DNA of 64,000 nt, from NCBI GenBank assembly GCA_023140195.1, contig JAGLME010000032.1, positions 52,220-116,219 of the forward strand, written 5' to 3'. Below are positions 710 to 45,644 of the stretch, in pieces; the stretch's first letter is position 1, and each line of letters begins with the position of its first letter. Both the position numbers and the translations under genes were made by a program. The DNA comes from Thermoplasmata archaeon. GTDB taxonomy: Archaea > Thermoplasmatota > Thermoplasmata > RBG-16-68-12 > SOIM01. The notes beneath the pieces were generated by a model. It did no database searches. It had not been told where the DNA came from and saw only the letters and a list, made by a program, of their open reading frames with translations.

Positions 710-949
710 ATGGATATCGTGAAGAGGTCCTGGAGGGCCCAACGCAAGATCGAGGAAAGGGCAAAGCGCATCGGAAGGGGGAAGTACGGCCAGGTCCTTC
801 ACATGGCTAGGAAACCCGAGCCGGATGAGTACATCAAGACTCTCCAACTTGTGGGCGCAGGCCTGCTCATGATCGGATTGCTGGGTTTTGCGATATATTA
901 CATCATGGTCTTCCTGATACCTGACTTGGTCTCCAGTTTCTCACCATAG
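710..949 (+). CDS. secE: Preprotein translocase subunit SecE / Sec61-gamma
   Basis: 79 aa, basic N-terminus plus a single C-terminal TM helix. It sits between ftsZ and spt5 as in many archaea. Confidence 0.8.
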
Positions 950-962
950 GGGAGGTTTTTTC

Positions 963-1871
963 TTGGGAGTGTTTGAACCGGAAGAGATAGAAGAGGAAGA
1001 AGAGGAGAAGAAGGAAGAAAAGCCATCCCTCATTGGCTACGGCCTCCATGTAGAACACGATGAGCTTCAGAGGGTTCTGCCATCTGGGGCCGATACAGAT
1101 TATCACCTCAAGCTTGAGAACACCGGGGATCATGACGACACCTATGCTCTGAAACTCGACCTCATATTCGCTGAGGAGGACGAGGGTGCCATGGAATGGT
1201 CCATCAGGATATCGGGCCTGAAAGAAGGTCTCTGGGATGTCACCCTGACCGGCGAGACAGAGAAGAGTATTAGTGTGAAGAAAGGCGACTCCAAACCCAT
1301 CGCCTTGAAAGTCGTTGCTCCCAAGAATCCCCAATACGGCTCCCGGGCCAACGTCATCCTCACGGTAATGTCAACAGGGGATGCAGCTGTCTCAGAGACG
1401 ATAACCACGGTTACCTCTGTAAGACAATCGATTCTGGCCGTCAAGACCTCGATAGGACACGAGAAATCGGTCGCCAAGTCGATAGCCAGCAGGGCTAAGC
1501 GTCAGGTTTCAGGCATTTTCTCAGTCCTTTCCCCTCCCACCCTCAGAGGCTACGTCCTAGTGGAGTCCATTAACCCGGATGCGCTGGAGCGCATAGTGAA
1601 GGGGATCAGGAGGGCCAGAGGCATCGTCAAGGGTGAGACCACCTTCAAGGAGATAGATCATTTCCTCACACCTCAGCCCTTGGTCTCGGGCGTCATGGAA
1701 GGAGATATCGTGGAGCTCGTGGCCGGTCCGTTCAAAGGGGAGAAGGCGAGGGTGCAACACATCGACGAGAGCAAGGAGGAGATTACCGTTGAACTGTTCG
1801 AATCAATGGTCCCTATACCAGTTACGGTCAGGGGCGATCACGTCAGAGTGCTTGAGAAGGAGGAAGGATAG
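963..1871 (+). CDS. spt5: Transcription elongation factor Spt5 (NusG) with an unusual ~150-aa N-terminal extension. A TTG start follows a GGGGAGG Shine-Dalgarno. The canonical NGN domain begins near aa 157 ([15 protein letters not shown]...), and the KOW motif ([18 protein letters not shown]) is C-terminal.
   Basis: NGN and KOW motifs are recognisable. The GGGGAGG-N6-TTG context supports the long form. An internal Met (aa 136) is an alternative start. Confidence 0.85.
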
Positions 1872-1873
1872 CC

Positions 1874-2356
1874 ATGGTGGAAGTTCTTGAGATGCTGGTC
1901 GACGCCGGCAAGGCGAACGCCGGACCCCCCCTGGGTCCCTCTCTAGGTCCCCTAGGACTCAATATTGGCGAGATCATCGCGTTCATCAACGAGAAGACGA
2001 AGCATTTCGAGGGAATGAAGGTCCCCATCAAGCTCACGGTGGACCCGAAGACCAAAGAGTACGACCTGGAAGTGGGAACACCACCAACCACCGCACTGAT
2101 ATTCAAGGAGCTGGGGGTCGAGAAGGGCTCTGGGAACACACCAAGTGTCAAAGCCGGAGACCTGACCATCGAGCAGGTCATGAAGATAGCCGATATGAAG
2201 ATGGACTCGATGCTTGGCAAGACCAAGAAGGACAGGATGATGGAGGTCATCGGTTCCTGCGTTTCGTGCGGCGTTCACATCGAGGGAAAACCGCCCAAGG
2301 AGGCCCAGGCCGAGCTGAAGGAAGGAAGGTACGACGGCATAATCCCGCCCGAGTAG
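1874..2356 (+). CDS. rpl11: 50S ribosomal protein L11 (uL11)
   Basis: Conserved uL11 N-terminal (PPLGPSLGPLGLNI) and C-terminal domains. Operon position after spt5. Confidence 0.95.
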   Translation: MVEVLEMLVDAGKANAGPPLGPSLGPLGLNIGEIIAFINEKTKHFEGMKVPIKLTVDPKTKEYDLEVGTPPTTALIFKELGVEKGSGNTPSVKAGDLTIEQVMKIADMKMDSMLGKTKKDRMMEVIGSCVSCGVHIEGKPPKEAQAELKEGRYDGIIPPE

Positions 2357-7290: not shown

Positions 7291-8730
7291 TTACTTCCGC
7301 TGCCCCGCTCTGGGGAGCCACTTAGCCATTGAAAAGCCGTAGAAGGCGACTCCCAATCCTCCGAACAGAATTGCCAGGAACAGCAGAATGTTGAACGTAT
7401 AAGTCACGGTAGACGGCGAGGTTGATGTGTCGAGCTCCATGCCCGTTATGCCACCATCTAAGGTCACCTTGTAAGATCCACTCTCAAAGAGGGCTACCGA
7501 ATCCACCGATCCTGTGTAGACCATGAGAGTGATCAGGCCTGAAATGATGAAGAAGACGATACCCAGCAATACCAGGATGGCGCCGGCCTTCGCAGTTCCG
7601 TCTGACGGGACGACCGCGGGAGCAACGGCTGCTGGCCGTGCAGCTGCTGGTCGGGCCCTGGTTGCAGGTCTTGCGACACCCGGTTTCGCACCGGGCGGCC
7701 TCACGGCGACGGTCACCCTCTGCGGTGGGGCCTTGAGAGGTCTGTATGCTCGACAGCTCCAGCAGTAATACTGCCTGTGCTTGGGCACGTATTTCATGTC
7801 CGAACCGCATGCCGGGCATCGCTTCACCGCTGGAGGTGCTCCAGCTCTCGGCTCGACCTTCTTGACCCCCTCGTACGCCTTGCAGCTGTTACAGTACCAC
7901 CTGTTGTATTCTTTGATGTGTCTGAGAGGTCTCCCGCACGTAGAGCATGTCTTTCCAGGTCTCTTTGCGACTTCTGGAGCTTCTTTCCTGGAAATGGTCA
8001 CCGGAGCGTATGTTCCACAACTCTGGCAGTACCACCTCTCGTATTCCTTGATGTACTTGAGAGGCCTCTTGCACGTGGGGCAGGGTCTCGCTTCTTGTGC
8101 TGGGACCGCTGCCGCGGCAGGGGGAGCAGCAGGCTTGGGCTTCTCTCTGGGAGCATATGACTTGCAGCTGTGACAGTAATACCTATCATACTTCTCAATG
8201 TGTTCGAGCTCCTTCCCGCAAGTTGGGCAGGGACGCTCGATCTTCTCCTTGGGAGGTGGCGGGGCCTCTTCCTCAATGGGTGCGGCGACTTCTTCTTCAG
8301 CGACTTCCTCTTCAGGCTCTTCTTCTGGAGGCTCCTCCTCTTCAGGTGCTTCTTCCTCTTCGGTCTTCTCTTCCTCAGGAGCTTCCTCTTCCTCCTCGGG
8401 TTCTTCCTCAGGAGCTTCCTTTTCTTCCTCTTCAGGTGCTTCTTCCTCTTCGGTCTTCTCTTCCTCAGGAGCTTCCTCTTCAGGCTCTTCTTCCTCAGGA
8501 GCTTCCTCTTCTACCTCTTCCTCGGCCTCCTCTTCTTCACCCTCAATAGGCTCTTCCTCTTCTGGTTCTTCTTCAGCGGGACCTTCGCCAGATATGTAGG
8601 CGTACAACCTGTTCTGTAGATCTTTCTTGACGCCAGAAGTATCAAGGTCGCAGGTCTCACACATGTCCTTCAGTTGGGCCTTCTTAGCTTTCTGTATGTC
8701 TTCCTCCGTGATAGAAGATTCTTCGGCCAT
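7291..8730 (-). CDS. Membrane protein with four regions: an N-terminal SAP-like DNA-binding motif; a ~120-aa poly-Glu/Pro low-complexity region; four tandem C4 zinc-ribbon modules (CPxCG...YxRxYCxxCxxY); and two C-terminal TM helices
   Basis: SAP-like LKDMCETCDLDTSGVKKDLQNRLYAYI. Four ~45-aa repeats each with CxxC...CxxC. Hydrophobic helices ILVLLGIVFFIISGLITLMVY and FNILLFLAILFGGLGVAFYGF. Confidence 0.75.
   Translation of the reverse strand: MAEESSITEEDIQKAKKAQLKDMCETCDLDTSGVKKDLQNRLYAYISGEGPAEEEPEEEEPIEGEEEEAEEEVEEEAPEEEEPEEEAPEEEKTEEEEAPEEEEKEAPEEEPEEEEEAPEEEKTEEEEAPEEEEPPEEEPEEEVAEEEVAAPIEEEAPPPPKEKIERPCPTCGKELEHIEKYDRYYCHSCKSYAPREKPKPAAPPAAAAVPAQEARPCPTCKRPLKYIKEYERWYCQSCGTYAPVTISRKEAPEVAKRPGKTCSTCGRPLRHIKEYNRWYCNSCKAYEGVKKVEPRAGAPPAVKRCPACGSDMKYVPKHRQYYCWSCRAYRPLKAPPQRVTVAVRPPGAKPGVARPATRARPAAARPAAVAPAVVPSDGTAKAGAILVLLGIVFFIISGLITLMVYTGSVDSVALFESGSYKVTLDGGITGMELDTSTSPSTVTYTFNILLFLAILFGGLGVAFYGFSMAKWLPRAGQRK
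8335..8530. repeat. About 90-bp tandem direct repeat (two copies plus degenerate flanks) encoding the EEEAPEEEKTEEEEAPEEEE acidic block of the 7291..8730 protein
   Basis: The string ttcaggtgcttcttcctcttcggtcttctcttcctcaggagcttcctcttc occurs at 8341-8391 and 8431-8481. Shadow ORFs in every frame are artefacts of the low complexity. Confidence 0.65.
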
Positions 8731-29210: not shown

Positions 29211-30131
29211 CTAGGTTATTGCCAACACAAGCCCCAAGATCAGGTTCCCTATGAAGAACGATATCAGAAGACCGAGGAGCATCGGAACCATGAAAGGTAG
29301 CTGCGGTGTCGCCCATGCTTCATCCCGGCCAAATGCAATCAGTGTCTGGATCTCCCCCTCTTTGTCGCCTCTCCTTTTCGGGAAGACGCTTGTCTCCACT
29401 CTTTCATTGCGCACTCGCTCCATCAGCCAAGCGAACTTGGGAAAATCGGCCAGACCTGCCTTGTACCCGAACAGGCACTGAGGGAACTCAAGATTCCCCT
29501 TTCGGGCGTTGATGACCAGGAATACCAGTGGTGCGAAGACGATCAATATGGCCGCGTTCATCAGGATCACCAAGGAGAACGGAAAGACGATTTCCATGAA
29601 ACTCCCGGCTGGAAATCCCATTTCAATGATTGGAAATCCGAGGAACGCAGGATAGAATGGGGCAAGTACTGCCAGGGACATCAGGGCCTTGGCATCGGCA
29701 CCGCCTTTCAGCAGCCCTGTCTGGAAGAATATGTGGGCAACGATGATCATCGCTGGTATGGTTAAGAGGCGGAGGAAAAGCTCCATTTGAGCAGCATCCT
29801 GATGGAGCAAGAACATTTGGACAATGATCACAACCGCCACCGTCCCGTAGAGAATGAACCCGAGCGGAACGAAGTGGAGGCCTTCATCGATTATCGGCTC
29901 GCGTTCGATGTAAACCTCATAGAAGAGTATCCCTGCCGGTAAGAAGATCAGGAAGTGGACCCAGGTCGCGTCGGAATGACTAAGAAGGTCCATCCCCAGA
30001 ATCAGGAATCCTAAGGCCCCGAGGGCCATCCAGACCTCGTTCTTAACCCTCCTTGTTCTGACATCGGAATAGGCGGCAAACCCAAAGAAGACAACCCCAA
30101 CAAGAAGTCTCAGGAGGGAGAGAGTCTCCAT
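29211..30131 (-). CDS. Type IV prepilin / preflagellin peptidase (A24 family, FlaK/PibD-like). The internal start METLSLL at 30131 is preferred over the long ORF start at 30314.
   Basis: Catalytic Asp motifs YSDVRTRRVKNEVW (D...RR..N) and GGADAKAL (GxGDxKL-type). About 8 TM helices. Confidence 0.75.
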   Translation of the reverse strand: METLSLLRLLVGVVFFGFAAYSDVRTRRVKNEVWMALGALGFLILGMDLLSHSDATWVHFLIFLPAGILFYEVYIEREPIIDEGLHFVPLGFILYGTVAVVIIVQMFLLHQDAAQMELFLRLLTIPAMIIVAHIFFQTGLLKGGADAKALMSLAVLAPFYPAFLGFPIIEMGFPAGSFMEIVFPFSLVILMNAAILIVFAPLVFLVINARKGNLEFPQCLFGYKAGLADFPKFAWLMERVRNERVETSVFPKRRGDKEGEIQTLIAFGRDEAWATPQLPFMVPMLLGLLISFFIGNLILGLVLAIT

Positions 30132-30154
30132 GTTTCTGTGTACAAAGGGTTCGT

Positions 30155-30161
30155 ATATAAT
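30155..30161. promoter_or_regulatory. TATA-box-like element (TATATAA) in the divergent intergenic region between the A24 peptidase (-) and MscS (+) genes. Possibly bidirectional.
   Basis: AT-rich TATA-like heptamer located 55-60 bp upstream of the MscS ATG (30217) and about 25 bp from the peptidase ATG. Confidence 0.4.
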
Positions 30162-30216
30162 ACTATTGAGATGGCCATTGAGAAGGTTTATTAGTTCTCT
30201 TTCTATTGCCTGCCAC

Positions 30217-31758
30217 ATGTCAAGCAGACTCGCCGTTATTTCGATTCTTGGCATTTTCTTTTTGGCTCTATTCAGTATGAATGCCTTGGCATCAGAACAG
30301 ATTGGCAGCACCAATCTCTACGCTTTTCCTGATGGCGATGTGGATGTGGAGGTCCACCTGGATGAAGAAGTTGTGTATGTTTGGTCGATCTGTAACACCG
30401 GTTCAGAGAGGTATCAAGTCTCGACGTCCGTGAACAACACGGGCGACTTCGATGCCTTCGTCACTCCGACCCATCTCGATTTCCTGCCGGACCAGAGCGA
30501 CGAGGGCTGCAAGGATGTGACCCTGACCGTGAACGCTCCCTCAGAAGGTGAAGAAGAGGTTGTACTTATTGGAGTCGTTTTCAGCACCACCAACCTGGCG
30601 ACATTTGAAGTTTCGAACGAGACAATCTTCACGACCAACAGATTGACTGGTGTGACCCATCCTGCAGATCCCGAAGGGAAGCTCTTCGGCTTTTATGATA
30701 ACTTTCTACCCTCTCCCCTTGACACTTCTTTCTGGGCCTTCATTATCACATTCCTGTTATGGATCGCAATAGCGGGATTCATCGTCGGGCTTGCCAATTT
30801 GATTGCCAGGACCTTTGCACGCGAGACCGAGACAAAGGTCGACGACATGATCGTCGAACTGATGAAGGGCCCCATATTCCTTCTGATAATCTTCTTTGGA
30901 TTTCAATTCTCGATGCCCATCGGTGGATTCGACAGTAGCCAGATACCGTTTCTGGACTCGGTCCTCGGCATGATGTTGACCGGATTGATAACTTGGATTT
31001 CGTATAAGGTCTTCAAAGACATACTCGTTTACTACGGCAAGATACTCTCGGCCAGGACCCAGACCGACCTGGACGACAGGTTGATACCAGTGATCTCGAA
31101 GCTGGGCGGTATGGTGATAATTGTTTTTGGAGTCATCGCAATCTTCGGGTCCTTTGGCTTTGACATAGCCCTGTTCCTCGCTGGTATGGGTTTCTTGGGC
31201 ATTGTTATCGGCTTCGCAGCCAGATCCACTCTTTCGAATTTCTTCGCTGGTATTTTCCTAATGCTGGATCGGCCGTTCAAACCTGGCGATTTGATCGTCA
31301 TTGGATCCGGAGAGGTCTGCAGGGTGGCCTGGGTCGGATTGAGGAGCACCAAGTTGTATCACGTTTCCAGCCATCAGATGATCACCCTTCCGAACAACAT
31401 GCTGGCCGAAGAGAAGGTCATTAACATAACCCAACCCGACGAGAGGTTCAGGACCAAGGTCGAGATTGGCGTTGCTTATGGAACGGACCTGGACCATGTG
31501 AAGAAGACTCTGCTTGATGTAGTGAACAGTCATCCGGACGTTCTCAAAGGAGAAGACACGAAGATCCTCTTCCGTGTGCTGGCATTTGCGGACTCGAGCA
31601 TCAACGTCAAGGTGATCTTCTGGGTCAACAAAGTGGAGAACAAGTGGCGGGTAGAGAGCGAACTGAAGGAGATGCTCGACAAGAGGTTCAAGGAGGAACA
31701 CATCGAAATACCATTCCCCCAAAGAGTGGTGTACATGCATCAGGAGACGAAGATGTAG
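30217..31758 (+). CDS. Mechanosensitive channel MscS family with an N-terminal signal peptide and a ~170-aa extracellular beta-sandwich-like domain. The start is at the internal Met (MSSRLAVISILGIFFLALFSMNALA).
   Basis: MscS beta-domain and C-terminus (LMLDRPFKPGDLIVIG...VEIGVAYGTDL). Signal peptide. N-domain with DUF11-like strands (DVTLTVNAPSEGEEEVVLIGVVFS). Confidence 0.85.
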   Translation: MSSRLAVISILGIFFLALFSMNALASEQIGSTNLYAFPDGDVDVEVHLDEEVVYVWSICNTGSERYQVSTSVNNTGDFDAFVTPTHLDFLPDQSDEGCKDVTLTVNAPSEGEEEVVLIGVVFSTTNLATFEVSNETIFTTNRLTGVTHPADPEGKLFGFYDNFLPSPLDTSFWAFIITFLLWIAIAGFIVGLANLIARTFARETETKVDDMIVELMKGPIFLLIIFFGFQFSMPIGGFDSSQIPFLDSVLGMMLTGLITWISYKVFKDILVYYGKILSARTQTDLDDRLIPVISKLGGMVIIVFGVIAIFGSFGFDIALFLAGMGFLGIVIGFAARSTLSNFFAGIFLMLDRPFKPGDLIVIGSGEVCRVAWVGLRSTKLYHVSSHQMITLPNNMLAEEKVINITQPDERFRTKVEIGVAYGTDLDHVKKTLLDVVNSHPDVLKGEDTKILFRVLAFADSSINVKVIFWVNKVENKWRVESELKEMLDKRFKEEHIEIPFPQRVVYMHQETKM

Positions 31759-31771
31759 CCCTCTCGTAGGG

Positions 31772-33670
31772 TTACTTCTCCTTTTTCTTGTTGTCCATCT
31801 TCTTCTGGAGCTTCTTGGCCTGGACCCTCATCCTCCTTTCCTGGTCCAGCTTCTTTTTGAGCTCTTTCTTCTTCAATGAGTCCTGCGTTCTCTCATGCCT
31901 GAGTTTCTCTAGCTCCAGAGGACCCTGTTTGGCATTCCTTCTTTCGCTGAACACGACTCCCAATGTTGTCACCACAACGCTGATGACTATGATCAGGAAA
32001 GCTATGTTGAGGAACTGGTCCTTGTACGGGCTCATCATGTCATAGTAGGAAGTACCTTCTTTGAACGCATTGATGGTGAACGGGAGAGACGCCAGGACGG
32101 CTGCCGCCAAACCTCTCCCCATCATGAGCCAGATGGCGAACTTGTCATCCCTGCTCTCCGGGTGTATCCTGACCGTTATGGAAGTGGTCAGGTAACGAAC
32201 GGCCATCAGCGCCAGGAAAATGAGGACCACTCCGATCAGGAACAGAGTTCCAGTGTTGTTCAAAGCATCCAGTCCTGGGATGATCGTTTCCACATCCATG
32301 TGGCCGCTCAAGGATAAGGTGAAGACCAATCCAAGGAACACAAAGAAGAACGTCCTGACAACGAAAGACAGCTCCGAATGGAACTGTTTTATTCTCTCGT
32401 CAAGAACGAACTTCGTCTTGATTTTGAACATCCTTGCGATCTCATCCTTGTTGCCGAGAACGAGACCGAAGATGAGCGCCGCCATCGCACCACTCCCACC
32501 CACCAGCTCCACAAACCCGTACAGGATGAACAGGGCTGCTATCGTGATCATGAAGGAGAAGGGCTTTCCGTAGAGCCTTTTGAGAATCCTCAGCCAAAAG
32601 ATACCGAAGAACAAGGCGACCAGGAACGCGATGGAGAACCCTGCGAACAGGTTGGTGACCGCTTCTGCTGGATCATCCGTTCCAATGATGAATTCAACAA
32701 GTGCCAAGGCAACTATGATGCAGAGGACATCCGTCAGGACCGCTTCAAGTGTCAGGACCGTCTGAGTCTCCTCGTCCATGGTCATCCGCCTTACCAGCGT
32801 GATGATGACCGCTCCGCTAACGCCACCCAGGACCGCCCCCAAGAGGATGCCGATGATCAATGGATAGCCCAAGATGACGTTCGCCACAAAAGCAACTGAG
32901 ATGACTGTCAGGATGAATCCGACAAGCGTGTGAATGAAAGCGATGTTTATCTTCCTCAGAACCAGGTCGAAGTTGAGGTTGAGTCCACCGTCGAACAGGA
33001 TTATCACCAGAGCCAGTGCGGCGAAGTAGGGCATCACTGTCTCAAGCAGGGCCCTCGGTACCAGTTCGACGCCAAAATAAGCAATCGCGATCGGACCCAG
33101 GATCAGCCCGAGGATTACCAGAATAAGCAGGTCGGGTACTCTGGTCCTCTCGAATATCAGGGTCGCGAAGAAGCCGACGAAAATGATGGCTCCTATTGCC
33201 ATGAAGGCCAGCAGGACGGTGGGAATGTCACTCACTGGCGTGGCCGCGACTATCTCGGTTTCTGTTGATACGACCAGTTCACCGCTCTCATTCGTCGTTT
33301 GGGCAGTCGCATTGAATGTGACGCTCACATTCCCCACCTCTCCGGTTCTGGCGGTTCCGGAATCGACGCGGAGGACTACATCTTCGGTTTCGTAGGGTGG
33401 TAGCTGGAACTGTTCTGTGGATAGGTTGGCGACCATGTTCGGATTATCGGGGATGAGAGTGAGGGTGACGAGATATGTGACATTGTTGGAATTGAGAAGG
33501 GTCCAAGAATAGGTCACGAAGGAGCCCACTTCCGCCTCTTTCTGGAGCGTCTCCTCAATGGACATTATTACGCCGGTGTCTGGTATCGGCTCAAGGGCGG
33601 AAGCATTGGTGGATAAGAATACACAGAATAACACTGCGAAGATCGAGAGTGCTCCCATCAGCCTACGCAT
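31772..33670 (-). CDS. Na+/H+ (cation:proton) antiporter, CPA1/NhaP type, with an N-terminal signal peptide plus an extracellular beta-sandwich-like domain and a C-terminal Lys/Glu-rich coiled tail
   Basis: About 11 TM helices with NhaP-like segments. N-terminus MRRLMGALSIFAVLFCVFLSTNASA followed by a DUF11-like domain. C-terminus LKKKELKKKLDQERRMRVQAKKLQKKMDNKKKEK. TATA box (TTTATAAA) about 30 bp upstream. Confidence 0.85.
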   Translation of the reverse strand: MRRLMGALSIFAVLFCVFLSTNASALEPIPDTGVIMSIEETLQKEAEVGSFVTYSWTLLNSNNVTYLVTLTLIPDNPNMVANLSTEQFQLPPYETEDVVLRVDSGTARTGEVGNVSVTFNATAQTTNESGELVVSTETEIVAATPVSDIPTVLLAFMAIGAIIFVGFFATLIFERTRVPDLLILVILGLILGPIAIAYFGVELVPRALLETVMPYFAALALVIILFDGGLNLNFDLVLRKINIAFIHTLVGFILTVISVAFVANVILGYPLIIGILLGAVLGGVSGAVIITLVRRMTMDEETQTVLTLEAVLTDVLCIIVALALVEFIIGTDDPAEAVTNLFAGFSIAFLVALFFGIFWLRILKRLYGKPFSFMITIAALFILYGFVELVGGSGAMAALIFGLVLGNKDEIARMFKIKTKFVLDERIKQFHSELSFVVRTFFFVFLGLVFTLSLSGHMDVETIIPGLDALNNTGTLFLIGVVLIFLALMAVRYLTTSITVRIHPESRDDKFAIWLMMGRGLAAAVLASLPFTINAFKEGTSYYDMMSPYKDQFLNIAFLIIVISVVVTTLGVVFSERRNAKQGPLELEKLRHERTQDSLKKKELKKKLDQERRMRVQAKKLQKKMDNKKKEK

Positions 33671-36629: not shown

Positions 36630-38377
<1,748 letters not shown>

Positions 38378-41158: not shown

Positions 41159-44100
41159 TCAGGTAAGGTCCTCCAACTGGAGCCTCATTGCCACTCCCAG
41201 CGAAAGAAGCTCGTCCAGCAGCAGTTTGAACGCATAGCTCGTCTGCACCGGATAAATCTTGGAATTGTTCTCGCACACCGGACATCTCAGGTTCCCCTTT
41301 CTGTCCTTGATGGCAAAATGACCGCATTCCGGATTACCGCACACATATTGGAGGGTTCCATCCGACTCGTCCAGCAGCCTGTCCTTGATCACCATGGCTG
41401 CGCCGTGCCCTATCAGGCAGTCCCTCTCCATCTCTCCGAACCTGAGCCCGCCCTGTCTCGAACGACCCTCGGTCGGCTGTCTCGTTAGAATCTGGATCGG
41501 CCCCCTTGAGCGAACATGCAGTTTCCCGGAGACCATGTGGTGGAGTTTCTGGTAGTAAATGACCCCCACAAAAATCTCGGCATTGATCATGTCCCCTGTC
41601 AACCCGTCGTACATGACCTCCTTGCCATTTGACTTGAATCCGTTAGTTATCAATGCATTCCTGAGCGACTCCTCCCTCTCGCCGCTGAACGGGGTACCGT
41701 CCACGAATCTTCCGTCCATTGACCCGATCTTGCCGCCGATCATTTCCAGGACATGCGCGACGGTCATTCTGGACGGAATGGCGTGCGGGTTCATTATCAG
41801 GTCCGGAACGATGCCCTCGGCTGTGAATGGCATATCCTCCATGGGTGCTATCAGTCCAATGACCCCTTTCTGACCGTGCCTGGATGCGAACTTGTCCCCA
41901 AGCTCCGGAATCCTGAGGTCCCTGACCTTGACCTTCGCCAGCTTGCTCCCGTTCTCGGACTCGGTCAGCATGGCGCTGTCCACCCAACCGCGTTCTCCGT
42001 GCCGAACGGTGATGCTGGTCTCTCTCCTCTTCTGCGGCGTCAGAAAATCGGTTTCCTCCTCCAGGAATCGAGGGGGTGATGTCTTCCCGATGAGGACATC
42101 TCCTCCATCAACAGCAGCCTCTGGGCATATCATTCCGTCGTCCGGTGTGAGATTGCTGTACGACAGGTCAGCCCTGGCTCCCCTGACATCCGGTGAGGGA
42201 ATCTCGAAGTGGTCCTCCTGGCCACCGGGATATCTCCTCTCCTCGGAGCTATAGGTCCTCATGAAAGTGGACCGCCCAAGACCTCTGTCTATGCTGGCCT
42301 TGCTGAAGACCACCGCATCTTCCATGTTGTAGCCGCGATAGGACATGACCGCGACGACGTAGTTCTGACCGGCTGGCCTGTTGTTGAAATTGACGTATTT
42401 CATCTCATCAGTCTGGACAAGCGGTGCCTGCGGGTAGTGGAGAAGATGACCTCTCGTGTCCGGCCTCTTCCTGTAGTTCGACGCTCCGAGTCCCAAGGAC
42501 TGCTTCGCCATTCCGGCGCCCATTGTGACCCTGGGTGATGAGTTATGTTCGGGATATGGAACCAGACCTGCGCAGACCCCGAGGATCGTCATAGGGTCCA
42601 TCTCGAGATGCGTGTGTTCCGGCCTGAGAAGCGTCTCGACTTCGAAGACCTCATTGCAGTGGTGGCACTCCAGTCTTGCCATGTCATCCTCGCCCATATT
42701 GACCCAGCCCACATCATTCCTGGACAAGGGGGCTCTGCAGTGCTCGCATCGTGCTGGGACATCATAGGGATATATGGCGATGAACGAATCCTCTTCCTCC
42801 TCCGCATCCACCCATTCGACCACGCCGATCCTGACGAGGTCGCTCATCTTTCGCTTGCCCATGGTTACCTCTTCCAGATGTTTTGCAGTTAAGACAGGCC
42901 TTCCATCTTTGATCACTACCAGCGGTCTTCGTAGCCTCCCCTCGTCGCAGTTGATGACGACCTCATTCATGTGTCGGTCATGACGTATGTTGACCTCATG
43001 AGGGAGCAGACCTTCCCGTCTCCTTTCCCTGATCTTCTTGACCAGTAGTTCTGCGTTGTCGTGCAGGCCGACCAGGTCCCCGTTGATGTAGACCCTTGTG
43101 AGCGAGGTCTGTTCCCCCTTCACCTGTTGGGTCCCTAGATCAGCCAGTAGGACCTTGACTTCCCCCTCTGGCACACCCTCAGAAACATCGACGATCAGTG
43201 CACAGTTCTTCACCAGGCCGCAGTTCTGACCTTCAGGGGTCTCGTTGGGACACAGCCTCCCCCATTGTGTTGGATGAAGGTCCCTCGCCTCAAAGTGAGG
43301 CTGACTTCTTGTCAGCGGTGATGTGACCCTTCTCAAATGGCTGATCGCGCTCATGTTGGAGGTTCTGTCCAAAAGCTGCGATACGCCAGCCCTGCCGCCC
43401 ACCCAGTTTCCTGTAGCCAAAGCGTGGAGAAGTCTCTGCGTGAGCAGGTCTGGTCTAATGGACGAGGAGATCTTGACCTCCCTCTTTCTGGCATAGTTCC
43501 TCTCTACCTGGTATCTCAGGTCCTTGATGAGATTGGCGAAGCTCACTCTGAACAGATCTTCCATCAGGTCGCCAGCCAGTTTGAGCCTCTTGTTAGCGTA
43601 ATGGTCCTTGTCGTCCTGATGTCTCTTCTCCAAGGACAACTCAAGAACGGTTCGTGCCACACGACCCAAGAATATTGACTTCTTTAACCTGTCCTCGCGC
43701 GCATCTCCGAGATGGGGCAGAAGTGACCTGTCGATGATCGAGGATACCTTCCGTTCTCTGTATTCCTTGGCTTGACCCGTTGCGAACTTCTTCTCAAGCC
43801 AACTCAGTGCTTCGGCCTTGGTGAAGATTCCAGTCGGAGGGAACAGTTTCTTGTTCTGACATTCCTCGATGTTGGCATATACAATGTTCCTCATCTCCGG
43901 ATCGGAGACAATGGCCTCGAAGATATCCGCGTCGGAGTCCATCCCGAGAGCCTTCATCAGGATTATCAGAGGTATTTGGCCGGACGCTGTTGGCACGGAG
44001 ACCATCAGCATACCATCCTTCTTCTTCTCCATCAGTGTGAGCGCCCTGTAGCCCTCCTTCTGGGAGAAGACCTTGGCGACCTCCACCTTCTTCCCGTACC

Positions 44101-44749
44101 TCTCGCTGTATTCCACAAGGACCCTGTTTGGTGCGAGGTCCTCGAGCGAGATGGTCGCCCTCTCAGTACCGCCGATGATGAAGTAGCCACCTGGGTCGCG
44201 GGGATCTTCGCCCAACTCGATGAGTCTTTCTGTGTACTCCTCATCCGTCAGCTCCCCATCGTCTTCCAGGTTCTCCTTGTAGAGGGTGCACTTCTTGGAC
44301 TTGATCATTATCGGGAGTGAGCCTATCCTGACCCTTTCTGGCTCGTGTTCTACTCCGTTCTCGATCACCGTGAACTCCAGCTCTATCGGGGCTTGATAAT
44401 TCAGATTCCTGAGTCGTGCCTCCATTGGGGTCAGCTTGTGGGTCGCCCCGTTCGCCTCCCGAACCTCTGGCGCCCCAACACGGATGGTCGGCTTCGCCTC
44501 GTAGTCGATCTGGAACTTCTCGTCCCTTTTTCTGCCGAACCTGATTTCGACCATGTCGCCATCGGTTCTATCCTCATCCAGCCTTATCATTCCCCTCATT
44601 TCGTCCTCGACGCTGCTCCTGAGGTTGTCGACAATCCTCTGCATTCTGGCGTTCGGATTATCCAGCGTTGGCAGAAAATCGTTAAAGCTGGCTATATGGT
44701 GGTTTACTATGCTCCTCTCCCTGAAGAAGGCTTCAACAAGTTCTCTCAT
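41159..44749 (-). CDS. rpoB: DNA-directed RNA polymerase subunit B (Rpo2), unsplit
   Basis: 1196 aa. Conserved Rpo2 regions including the C-terminal Zn motif ([10 protein letters not shown]...CPVC). Single unsplit ORF. Confidence 0.95.
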
Positions 44750-45241: not shown

Positions 45242-45479
45242 TACGCTTCTCCAGGCAAGCATGCGAACTGTAGCGATTGCTAAACACCCTTATTAACTTT
45301 TTGGCCGGACGGTCATTTGATCGGTCGATTTTCCGTTTTCTTGTATAAATTCAAAGAGTAAGATATTAATCCAAGGATAAAAACCCAAAAAAACAATAAA
45401 TATAAATATGAGTGCTCAAAACAGCCCTGGAATCCGATAAAATCTTTATATTAAGCCATTATTCTTAGGACGGGTTCAA

Positions 45480-45644
45480 ATGGAAGAACAAAGATGCTCA
45501 TCCTGCGGGGCCATCCTTTTCGGAGAAGGCAACGTCGTCTTCAAGTGCCCTAAATGTAGTGAGAGCGAAATCGGGCGCTGCTCCAATTGTAGGGATCAGA
45601 GCGTCACTTACGTATGCAAGGCTTGTGGCTTCGAAGGACCTTAG
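45480..45644 (+). CDS. Small Zn-ribbon protein (55 aa, two CxxC...CxxC knuckles), the conserved upstream partner of EF-1beta in archaea (COG2888-like)
   Basis: Manual translation: MEEQRCSSCGAILFGEGNVVFKCPKCSESEIGRCSNCRDQSVTYVCKACGFEGP*. It is too short for the ORF track. TTTATATTA box about 25 bp upstream. Confidence 0.7.
   Translation: MEEQRCSSCGAILFGEGNVVFKCPKCSESEIGRCSNCRDQSVTYVCKACGFEGP

Follow-up and report, generated by a model that had tools for sequence, protein, structure and literature searches.

An acidic immunoglobulin-like domain precedes the NGN–KOW core of Spt5 in Thermoplasmatota

Spt5/NusG is, to our knowledge, the sole transcription factor conserved across all cellular life, and the archaeal protein is presented, in the reviews and in every solved structure that we know of, as a minimal pair of NGN and KOW domains. 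Here we report a longer Spt5, in which an additional immunoglobulin (Ig)-like domain precedes that pair. It is encoded in a 64,000-nucleotide stretch (hereafter the window, whose numbering is used throughout) of contig JAGLME010000032.1 of a Thermoplasmata archaeon (GCA_023140195.1). The beginning of the window is a conserved archaeal gene cluster comprising a partial ftsZ, secE, an open reading frame (ORF) of 302 residues, rpl11, rpl1 and rpl10, and thus holds the neighbourhood secE-spt5-rpl11-rpl1-rpl10 expected for an archaeal spt5 gene. The order ftsZ-secE-spt5-rpl11 is also present at the loci L037, L044 and L045. The ORF at 963–1871 on the forward strand is uninterrupted, and it is laid out with its neighbours as follows.

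710–949, forward strand: secE (79 residues; ORF list and sequence), whose TAG stop codon (947–949) and the spt5 ribosome-binding site have one G in common, the first of the site.
949–955, forward strand: Shine–Dalgarno-like GGGGAGG (sequence), 7 nucleotides before the start codon.
963–977, forward strand: TTG start codon and conserved N-terminal peptide M-G-V-F-E, both kept in orthologous loci.
978–1034, forward strand: low-complexity disordered linker, residues 6–24, Glu/Lys-rich here, with a low predicted local distance difference test score (pLDDT) and with variable length and composition in homologues.
1035–1424, forward strand: acidic Ig-like beta-sandwich domain of the NEW3/FixG_C/CARDB type, residues 25–154, net charge –9, isoelectric point (pI) 4.8.
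1425–1676, forward strand: NGN domain, residues 155–238, with A159, Y197 and L199 (RNA polymerase binding) and E201 (Spt4 contact).
1677–1871, forward strand: KOW domain, residues 239–302, plus the stop codon (Pfam PF00467, E = 1.1e-8).
1874–2356, forward strand: rpl11 (uL11), downstream of spt5 (ORF list; Pfam Ribosomal_L11 on the identical neighbour in L044).

The TTG at 963 is the earliest possible start after an in-frame stop at about 915–917. The initial annotation of this DNA had the frame open from a TTG six nucleotides after GGGGAGG; the open frame stands, and the spacing is corrected to 7 nucleotides (TTTTTTC). For non-coding RNAs and terminators in the region, Rfam gave one sub-threshold chance match and consensus scans stayed at expectation.

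Profile searches identified the C-terminal half of the ORF as Spt5. Pfam placed Spt5-NGN at residues 157–235 (E = 2.6e-18) and KOW at residues 246–277, giving the NGN and then single KOW required of archaeal Spt5. The NCBIfam Spt5 equivalog TIGR00405 (KOW_elon_Spt5) scored 173.5 bits (cut-off 69.95), with residues 159–301 spanning positions 2–144 of the 145 in the profile. Since the canonical match begins at about residues 157–159, about 155 residues lie upstream of it, in agreement with the N-terminal extension of about 150 residues that the initial annotation had ascribed to this protein. By comparison, the canonical archaeal Spt5 of Methanocaldococcus jannaschii, Pyrococcus furiosus and Thermococcus kodakarensis (PDB 3LPE, 3P8B, 3QQC, 4ZN1 and 9BCT) is an NGN–KOW protein of about 150 residues. 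The solved archaeal structures, of 147–163 residues, align to residues 156–300 only and begin 1–4 residues before NGN strand 1, whereas the window protein has 154 more residues at this end, a folded domain included. The two-domain minimal architecture of about 150 residues is thus not found in this 302-residue protein, but the mismatch in length is a departure in architecture and leaves orthology unaffected.

Mutagenesis of M. jannaschii Spt5 showed that A4, Y42 and L44 form the depression that binds the clamp coiled-coil of RNA polymerase (RNAP), and E46 fixes Spt4 (PMC2896526). Spt4 joins the NGN beta-sheet edge-on and extends it, its main effect being to stabilize NGN, and a conserved hydrogen bond is made via the Glu (PMC2896526). 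The NGN domain of the window protein aligns to that of M. jannaschii without gaps, so that the four residues correspond to A159, Y197, L199 and E201, and A159, Y197 and E201 are invariant in an alignment of 56 homologues. In the same alignment, the tail has a mean pairwise identity of 30% and the Ig-like domain one of 42%, compared with 69% in NGN, which is basic (pI 9.6), and 86% in KOW. Given the conservation of A159, Y197, L199 and E201, the protein's binding to RNAP and to Spt4 should be normal, and with these canonical activities retained, the Ig-like domain would be an add-on and not a replacement. We regard the identity and architecture of the long Spt5 as near certain; ORF 963–1871 is the organism's orthologous Spt5 in its usual position.

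The extension is shared with a large set of orthologues. A search of 5.8 billion proteins with the 302-residue query yielded 2475 matches, the best 120 of which are all annotated as Spt5, nearly all about 290–320 residues long, and in most of them the match takes in 87%–100% of the query, with identity as low as 50%. With the Aciduliprofundum or the Methanomassiliicoccus orthologue as the query instead, the result was similar, and homologues of about 270–320 residues that cover the extension number in the hundreds, far more than chance would produce. Moreover, a profile of the extra domain only was significant in 380 of the 398 full-length Spt5 sequences gathered; orthologous Spt5 in related genomes does carry the extension. 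Protein conservation of the upstream 135 residues reaches across orders, down to about 30%–40% identity. In a codon alignment against L001, the closest genome locus, the extra domain differs at 41, 21 and 82 sites of codon positions 1, 2 and 3, respectively, with 51 synonymous versus 49 non-synonymous codon changes, and the corresponding differences in the NGN–KOW core are 14, 7 and 80. This pattern indicates that the extra-domain DNA is coding and under purifying selection, looser than that on the core. Taken together, the comparisons indicate that translation begins at the TTG at 963 and includes the extension in one 302-residue protein.

The start of this protein is conserved as well. All 21 orthologous loci that share this N-terminus (among L001–L024) start with TTG, or GTG in two of them, and have a GAGG-type motif 6–9 nucleotides before the start. 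Codons 2–5 of the 21 loci encode G/S/E/D-[LVI]-F/L-[DEK] and vary freely in their synonymous sites (GGA/GGT/GGG, CTG/CTT/GTA/ATC, TTT/TTC and GAA/GAC/GAT). The peptide is kept despite this variation and is therefore under selection, and likewise the non-ATG start. The conserved TTG or GTG with its GAGG-type Shine–Dalgarno motif also suggests that weak or coupled initiation is selected for at this site behind secE. An MGVFE-type motif stands at the annotated start of 159 of the 398 homologues, and the proteins of Methanomassiliicoccus, Methanomethylophilaceae and Aciduliprofundum possess the domain behind different N-termini. In the window protein, the peptide is followed by a 14-residue acidic run (residues 7–20), and residues 1–24 carry a net charge of –8. 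This run, the beta-strands and the internal Met136 pointed out in the initial annotation all lie in the translation where it had located them. The acidic run is limited to this sublineage; the net charge of the tail ranges from –14 to +1 in homologues, and the linker is elsewhere Lys/Pro-rich or Pro-rich. The downstream rpl10 (uL10/P0; 3101–4114, forward strand) encodes a stalk protein that ends in a Glu/Lys-rich linker and GLGQLFG, which the Spt5 N-terminus, with its MGVFE/GLF motif and Glu/Lys-rich linker, mirrors; the resemblance is compositional only.

An AlphaFold2 model of the full-length protein, built on the 56-sequence alignment, has a mean pLDDT of 83. In this model, residues 1–22 are disordered (pLDDT 36–40 for residues 1–20), and residues from about 25 to 153 form an all-beta block with a pLDDT of 85–94, except for an acidic loop at residues 71–80 (pLDDT 66). 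The last strand of the Ig-like domain (residues 144–153) runs almost straight into NGN strand 1 (residues 156–162). The isolated domain was modeled with a pLDDT of 89.7 and a predicted template modeling score (pTM) of 0.83, and it adopts an Ig-like beta-sandwich fold. It is acidic in all 56 homologues (median net charge –6 and pI 4.8; maximum pI 6.15).

Profile comparisons assign this domain to a broad group of Ig-like repeats. The window domain itself lies below the Pfam gathering threshold, at 21.5 bits versus 25.6 for FixG_C (PF11614; E = 2.7e-4). Among 22 homologues at E ≤ 1, FixG_C was matched by 18 (best E = 1.2e-6), NPCBM_assoc (NEW3, PF10633) by 12 (best E = 6.9e-6) and DUF11 (PF01345) by two, and none of the 22 gave a direct match to CARDB (PF07705) in Pfam at this level. 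Against 1.84 billion representative proteins, the domain profile gave 1217 matches at E ≤ 1e-3. Besides about a dozen Spt5 representatives, these are proteins of 500–6000 residues, each matched over many stretches in tandem. The top non-Spt5 matches, with E values between 1e-34 and 1e-11, are multi-repeat proteins; Pfam classifies the repeats as NPCBM_assoc, FixG_C, Ig_VWA7 and CARDB, and one matched protein is annotated as DUF11. The Spt5 domain and those repeats have in common not only the fold but also the hallmark positions G, N-x-G, D-T, W, P...G and S..D-P. A second set of conserved positions is specific to Spt5: a K, an E before the family Trp, a G, an extra W-D-x-T hairpin, and E, G, D and T. 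The profile found no match among PDB sequences. The domain is homologous to repeats found in giant cell-surface proteins, which means that a normally extracellular module was recruited into a cytoplasmic transcription factor. The surface-protein repeats are arranged in tandem and are extracytoplasmic, whereas the Spt5 domain is present in a single copy, unanchored and fused to a cytoplasmic factor; a search of the protein for signs of an extracytoplasmic context revealed no hydrophobic segment at its N-terminus and no signal peptide or membrane anchor.

The initial annotation had likened this module to DUF11/CARDB-type beta-sandwiches, which the all-beta model and the profile homology to Ig-like repeats bear out in kind. 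It had also seen the same kind of module at the N-termini of the MscS and NhaP proteins of this window, and here sequence and profile comparisons with hmmsearch, hhalign and Pfam revealed no significant similarity. Searched with hmmsearch against all ORFs of the window, the hidden Markov model of the domain gave Spt5 as its sole significant match, with five others at E ≥ 0.7 and none of them in the MscS or NhaP genes; hhalign gave the Spt5 domain a probability of 1.5% against MscS and 0.5% against NhaP. Kinship with these two ectodomains was rejected on the negative hmmsearch and hhalign results. The observation of an extended Spt5 is thus confirmed, and its earlier interpretation partly supported. 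For their part, MscS (30130–31758, forward strand) and the NhaP-type Na+/H+ exchanger (31772–33670, reverse strand) each have a signal peptide followed by a beta-rich ectodomain of about 120 residues, which has faint Pfam matches only, none of them to a family at significance, and is unrelated in sequence to the Spt5 domain.

Domain-bearing Spt5 is encoded in genomes of Methanomassiliicoccales, Methanomassiliicoccus, Methanomethylophilaceae and Aciduliprofundum and in many metagenome-assembled genomes named Thermoplasmata or Thermoplasmatota archaeon. In Methanomicrobiales and Desulfurococcales, matching starts only at about residues 140–158. For a large part of the phylum Thermoplasmatota, this architecture is the ancestral one. 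For example, a 291-residue form from Candidatus Methanomassiliicoccus intestinalis is present in RefSeq and UniProt (WP_020449553.1, R9TC42). Complete genomes with the long form include those of Ca. M. intestinalis and Aciduliprofundum, as well as OY970070.1. Public databases name these long proteins plainly Spt5 or NusG, and full-text searches found no literature describing this Spt5 fusion. A 2026 survey of elongation-factor domains covered about 40 archaeal and 218 Asgard proteomes and does not mention Thermoplasmatota in the text or the supplements examined (PMC13289920). The extra domain on Spt5 is thus apparently undescribed.

In some other Thermoplasmata, a different N-terminal extension takes the place of the Ig-like domain. 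At L031 (2233–3444), a 403-residue Spt5 has about 250 residues of acidic (EEKP)n repeats as its N-terminal extension, and at L036 (2851–3495), a 214-residue Spt5 has a Pro/Lys-rich N-terminal tail of about 60 residues. Across the phylum, there seems to be a general tendency to elaborate the Spt5 N-terminus. In addition, a long Spt5 of 406 residues (P0124) has about 100 residues inserted within NGN, and another of 363 residues (P0125, from a cluster of 19) has a helical, charged insertion of about 55 residues within the Ig-like domain.

These features enable us to propose a putative role for the domain. The long Spt5 combines the MGVFE peptide, a variable disordered linker, the acidic Ig-like domain and the canonical NGN–KOW core, the last of which would bind the clamp coiled-coil of RNAP, as well as Spt4, normally. 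Because the last Ig strand ends about five residues before A159, the place of the Ig-like domain on the elongation complex would be beside the cleft and clamp coiled-coil. As it is acidic in every homologue, it most likely serves as a protein-contact module, which could provide an extra, lineage-specific RNAP contact that stabilizes or tunes Spt5 binding. Alternatively, the domain and its tethered N-terminal peptide could form a docking site for a partner protein. We hold, with moderate confidence, the joint reading of an orthologous long Spt5 with a canonical core and an Ig-like domain as a protein-contact module, in which the contact mechanism is our best guess.

Several points weigh against this reading. 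The pTM of the full-length model is 0.62, which bears on the relative orientation of the Ig-like and NGN domains. The N-terminal peptide, judged by its absence from Methanomassiliicoccus, Methanomethylophilaceae and Aciduliprofundum, cannot be essential to the role of the Ig-like domain. Moreover, the differing N-terminal extensions within the phylum may mean that the selected property is a generic one, such as bulk or charge, and not a specific interface. Finally, the only characterized accessory domains in the family, the DII domains of Thermotoga and Aquifex NusG, bind nucleic acids, which favors a DNA contact by analogy, and a net acidity is compatible with a local basic patch.

In one alternative, the Ig-like domain would be a DII-like anchor on upstream duplex DNA or nascent RNA that stabilizes Spt5 on the complex. 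Like the Ig-like domain, DII of Thermotoga maritima and Aquifex aeolicus NusG is a lineage-specific accessory on the NGN of the universal elongation factor, and it is thought to strengthen or modulate the association with the elongation complex (PMC5224480, PMC7819879). The Thermotoga domain binds both RNAP and double-stranded DNA, the latter with a Kd of 40 nM (PMC5224480), and the Ig-like domain is attached beside the cleft-spanning NGN. However, DII is a nucleic-acid-binding insertion within NGN that only some thermophilic bacteria have, whereas the Ig-like domain is N-terminal to NGN strand 1, acidic, and present also in mesophiles such as the gut-associated Ca. M. intestinalis. The two have no similarity in sequence or structure, the full model resembling Aquifex and Thermotoga NusG at NGN only. 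Given this unrelatedness and the acidic pI in 56 of 56 homologues, a charge that argues against DNA binding, a nucleic-acid clamp seems the less likely role, and we consider the anchor unlikely.

A bolder proposal, likewise unlikely as a whole, takes the N-terminal module, made up of the terminal peptide, a flexible tether that is often acidic and the acidic Ig-like domain, as an independently evolved archaeal counterpart of the N-terminal region of eukaryotic Spt5, that is, a docking arm beside the RNAP cleft that would recruit or hand over a basic partner. Candidate partners would be chromatin proteins that transcription displaces, a factor in termination or RNA processing, or the translation machinery, and the arm would perhaps act through the Lys-rich N-terminal extension of the RpoA'' subunit of the same organism. 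The acidic repeat tails of sister-lineage Spt5 would then be variations on the theme. The eukaryotic acidic region is likewise disordered and precedes NGN, where L031 has its (EEKP)n repeats, but it is unrelated in sequence and has no folded Ig-like domain, and the acidity of the archaeal tail varies across the clade.

The short junction to the core could also be read as a sign of autoinhibition, in which the Ig-like domain would fold onto NGN and keep the clamp-binding pocket covered until released by a signal. The junction is only about five residues before A159 of the RNAP-binding depression, the acidic domain is electrostatically complementary to the basic NGN, and masking by KOW in RfaH and Thermotoga NusG provides a precedent in the family (PMC7819879). 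Nevertheless, this is the sole Spt5 at the conserved locus and presumably an essential, general factor, for which constitutive masking seems costly, and we regard such a regulatory role as quite unlikely. We consider it very unlikely that the Ig-like domain substitutes for Spt4 as the NGN-stabilizing partner in this lineage. Such a substitution would fit the mainly stabilizing function of Spt4 (PMC2896526), and the only match of regular-expression scans of the 64-kb window for Spt4-like zinc ribbons was an unrelated ORF with four CxxC pairs (45441–45641, forward strand). Against it, E201, the Spt4-fixing residue, is invariant; spt4 is normally encoded elsewhere, so that its absence from one 64-kb window is uninformative; and Spt4 is detected in most archaea (PMC13289920). 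DNA anchoring, autoinhibition and Spt4 replacement thus all carry lower weight than the protein-contact reading.

The initial annotation had itself named two ways in which the extension could prove spurious. In the first, the true start would be Met136 inside the frame, or a site near NGN, and the frame ahead of it would be non-coding or form a small gene of its own. TTG is seldom used as a start codon, and the NCBI entry MCK5292581.1 (P0289) calls the identical gene from Met136 as a 167-residue Spt5 (1368–1871), which splits the Ig-like domain. But Met136 falls midway in the predicted beta-sandwich, and its column is Met in just 23 of 380 homologues. The 135 residues before it are conserved, with third-position-biased substitutions; no orthologue has a stop between extension and core, and the TTG and its Shine–Dalgarno motif are conserved. 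An internal start or separate upstream gene is therefore ruled out as extremely improbable, and the 167-residue call is an annotation truncation. The second, a sequencing or assembly error that erased a stop codon and fused two genes, has nothing but the unusual length in its favor and is of negligible probability, since hundreds of diverged orthologues have the continuous architecture and the identical 302-residue protein is encoded by 10 or more independent contigs of several samples, which excludes a lost stop codon.

Other proteins encoded in the window also show unusual features. RpoA'' (491 residues; 36902–38377, reverse strand) begins with about 105 residues (38063–38377) that have no counterpart in solved archaeal A''/Rpo1C, which are 391–397 residues long and align from about residue 105–120 of RpoA'' onward. 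This extension comprises a short helical segment and then a very Lys-rich linker, and has no significant Pfam match; the same organism thus has a basic extension on its polymerase subunit RpoA'' and an acidic one on Spt5. RpoB (1196 residues; 41159–44749, reverse strand) has an insertion of about 45 residues (665–709; 42623–42757) relative to P. furiosus Rpo2, with the alignment broken at 664/710 versus 630/632. In a 479-residue protein (7291–8730, reverse strand), an N-terminal SAP domain is accompanied by several zinc ribbons (Zn_ribbon_6, DZR), and the small ORF at 45441–45641 with four CxxC pairs encodes a multi-zinc-ribbon protein that is not Spt4-like.

In summary, this study describes a phylum-scale accessory domain on a universal elongation factor, although accessory domains on NusG/Spt5 as such have precedent. 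It provides a clean case in which an Ig-like repeat of surface proteins was co-opted into a cytoplasmic, nuclear-type machine. As ATG-preferring gene callers truncate the long Spt5, annotation in this clade needs the TTG start. The question of what the domain does is directly testable because genomes such as that of Ca. M. intestinalis encode the long form. With a folded domain conserved over much of the phylum and placed only a few residues from the polymerase-binding pocket, the elongation complexes of Thermoplasmatota, which include the Methanomassiliicoccales of the human gut, differ from the models established with Thermococcus, Pyrococcus, Methanocaldococcus and Sulfolobus.
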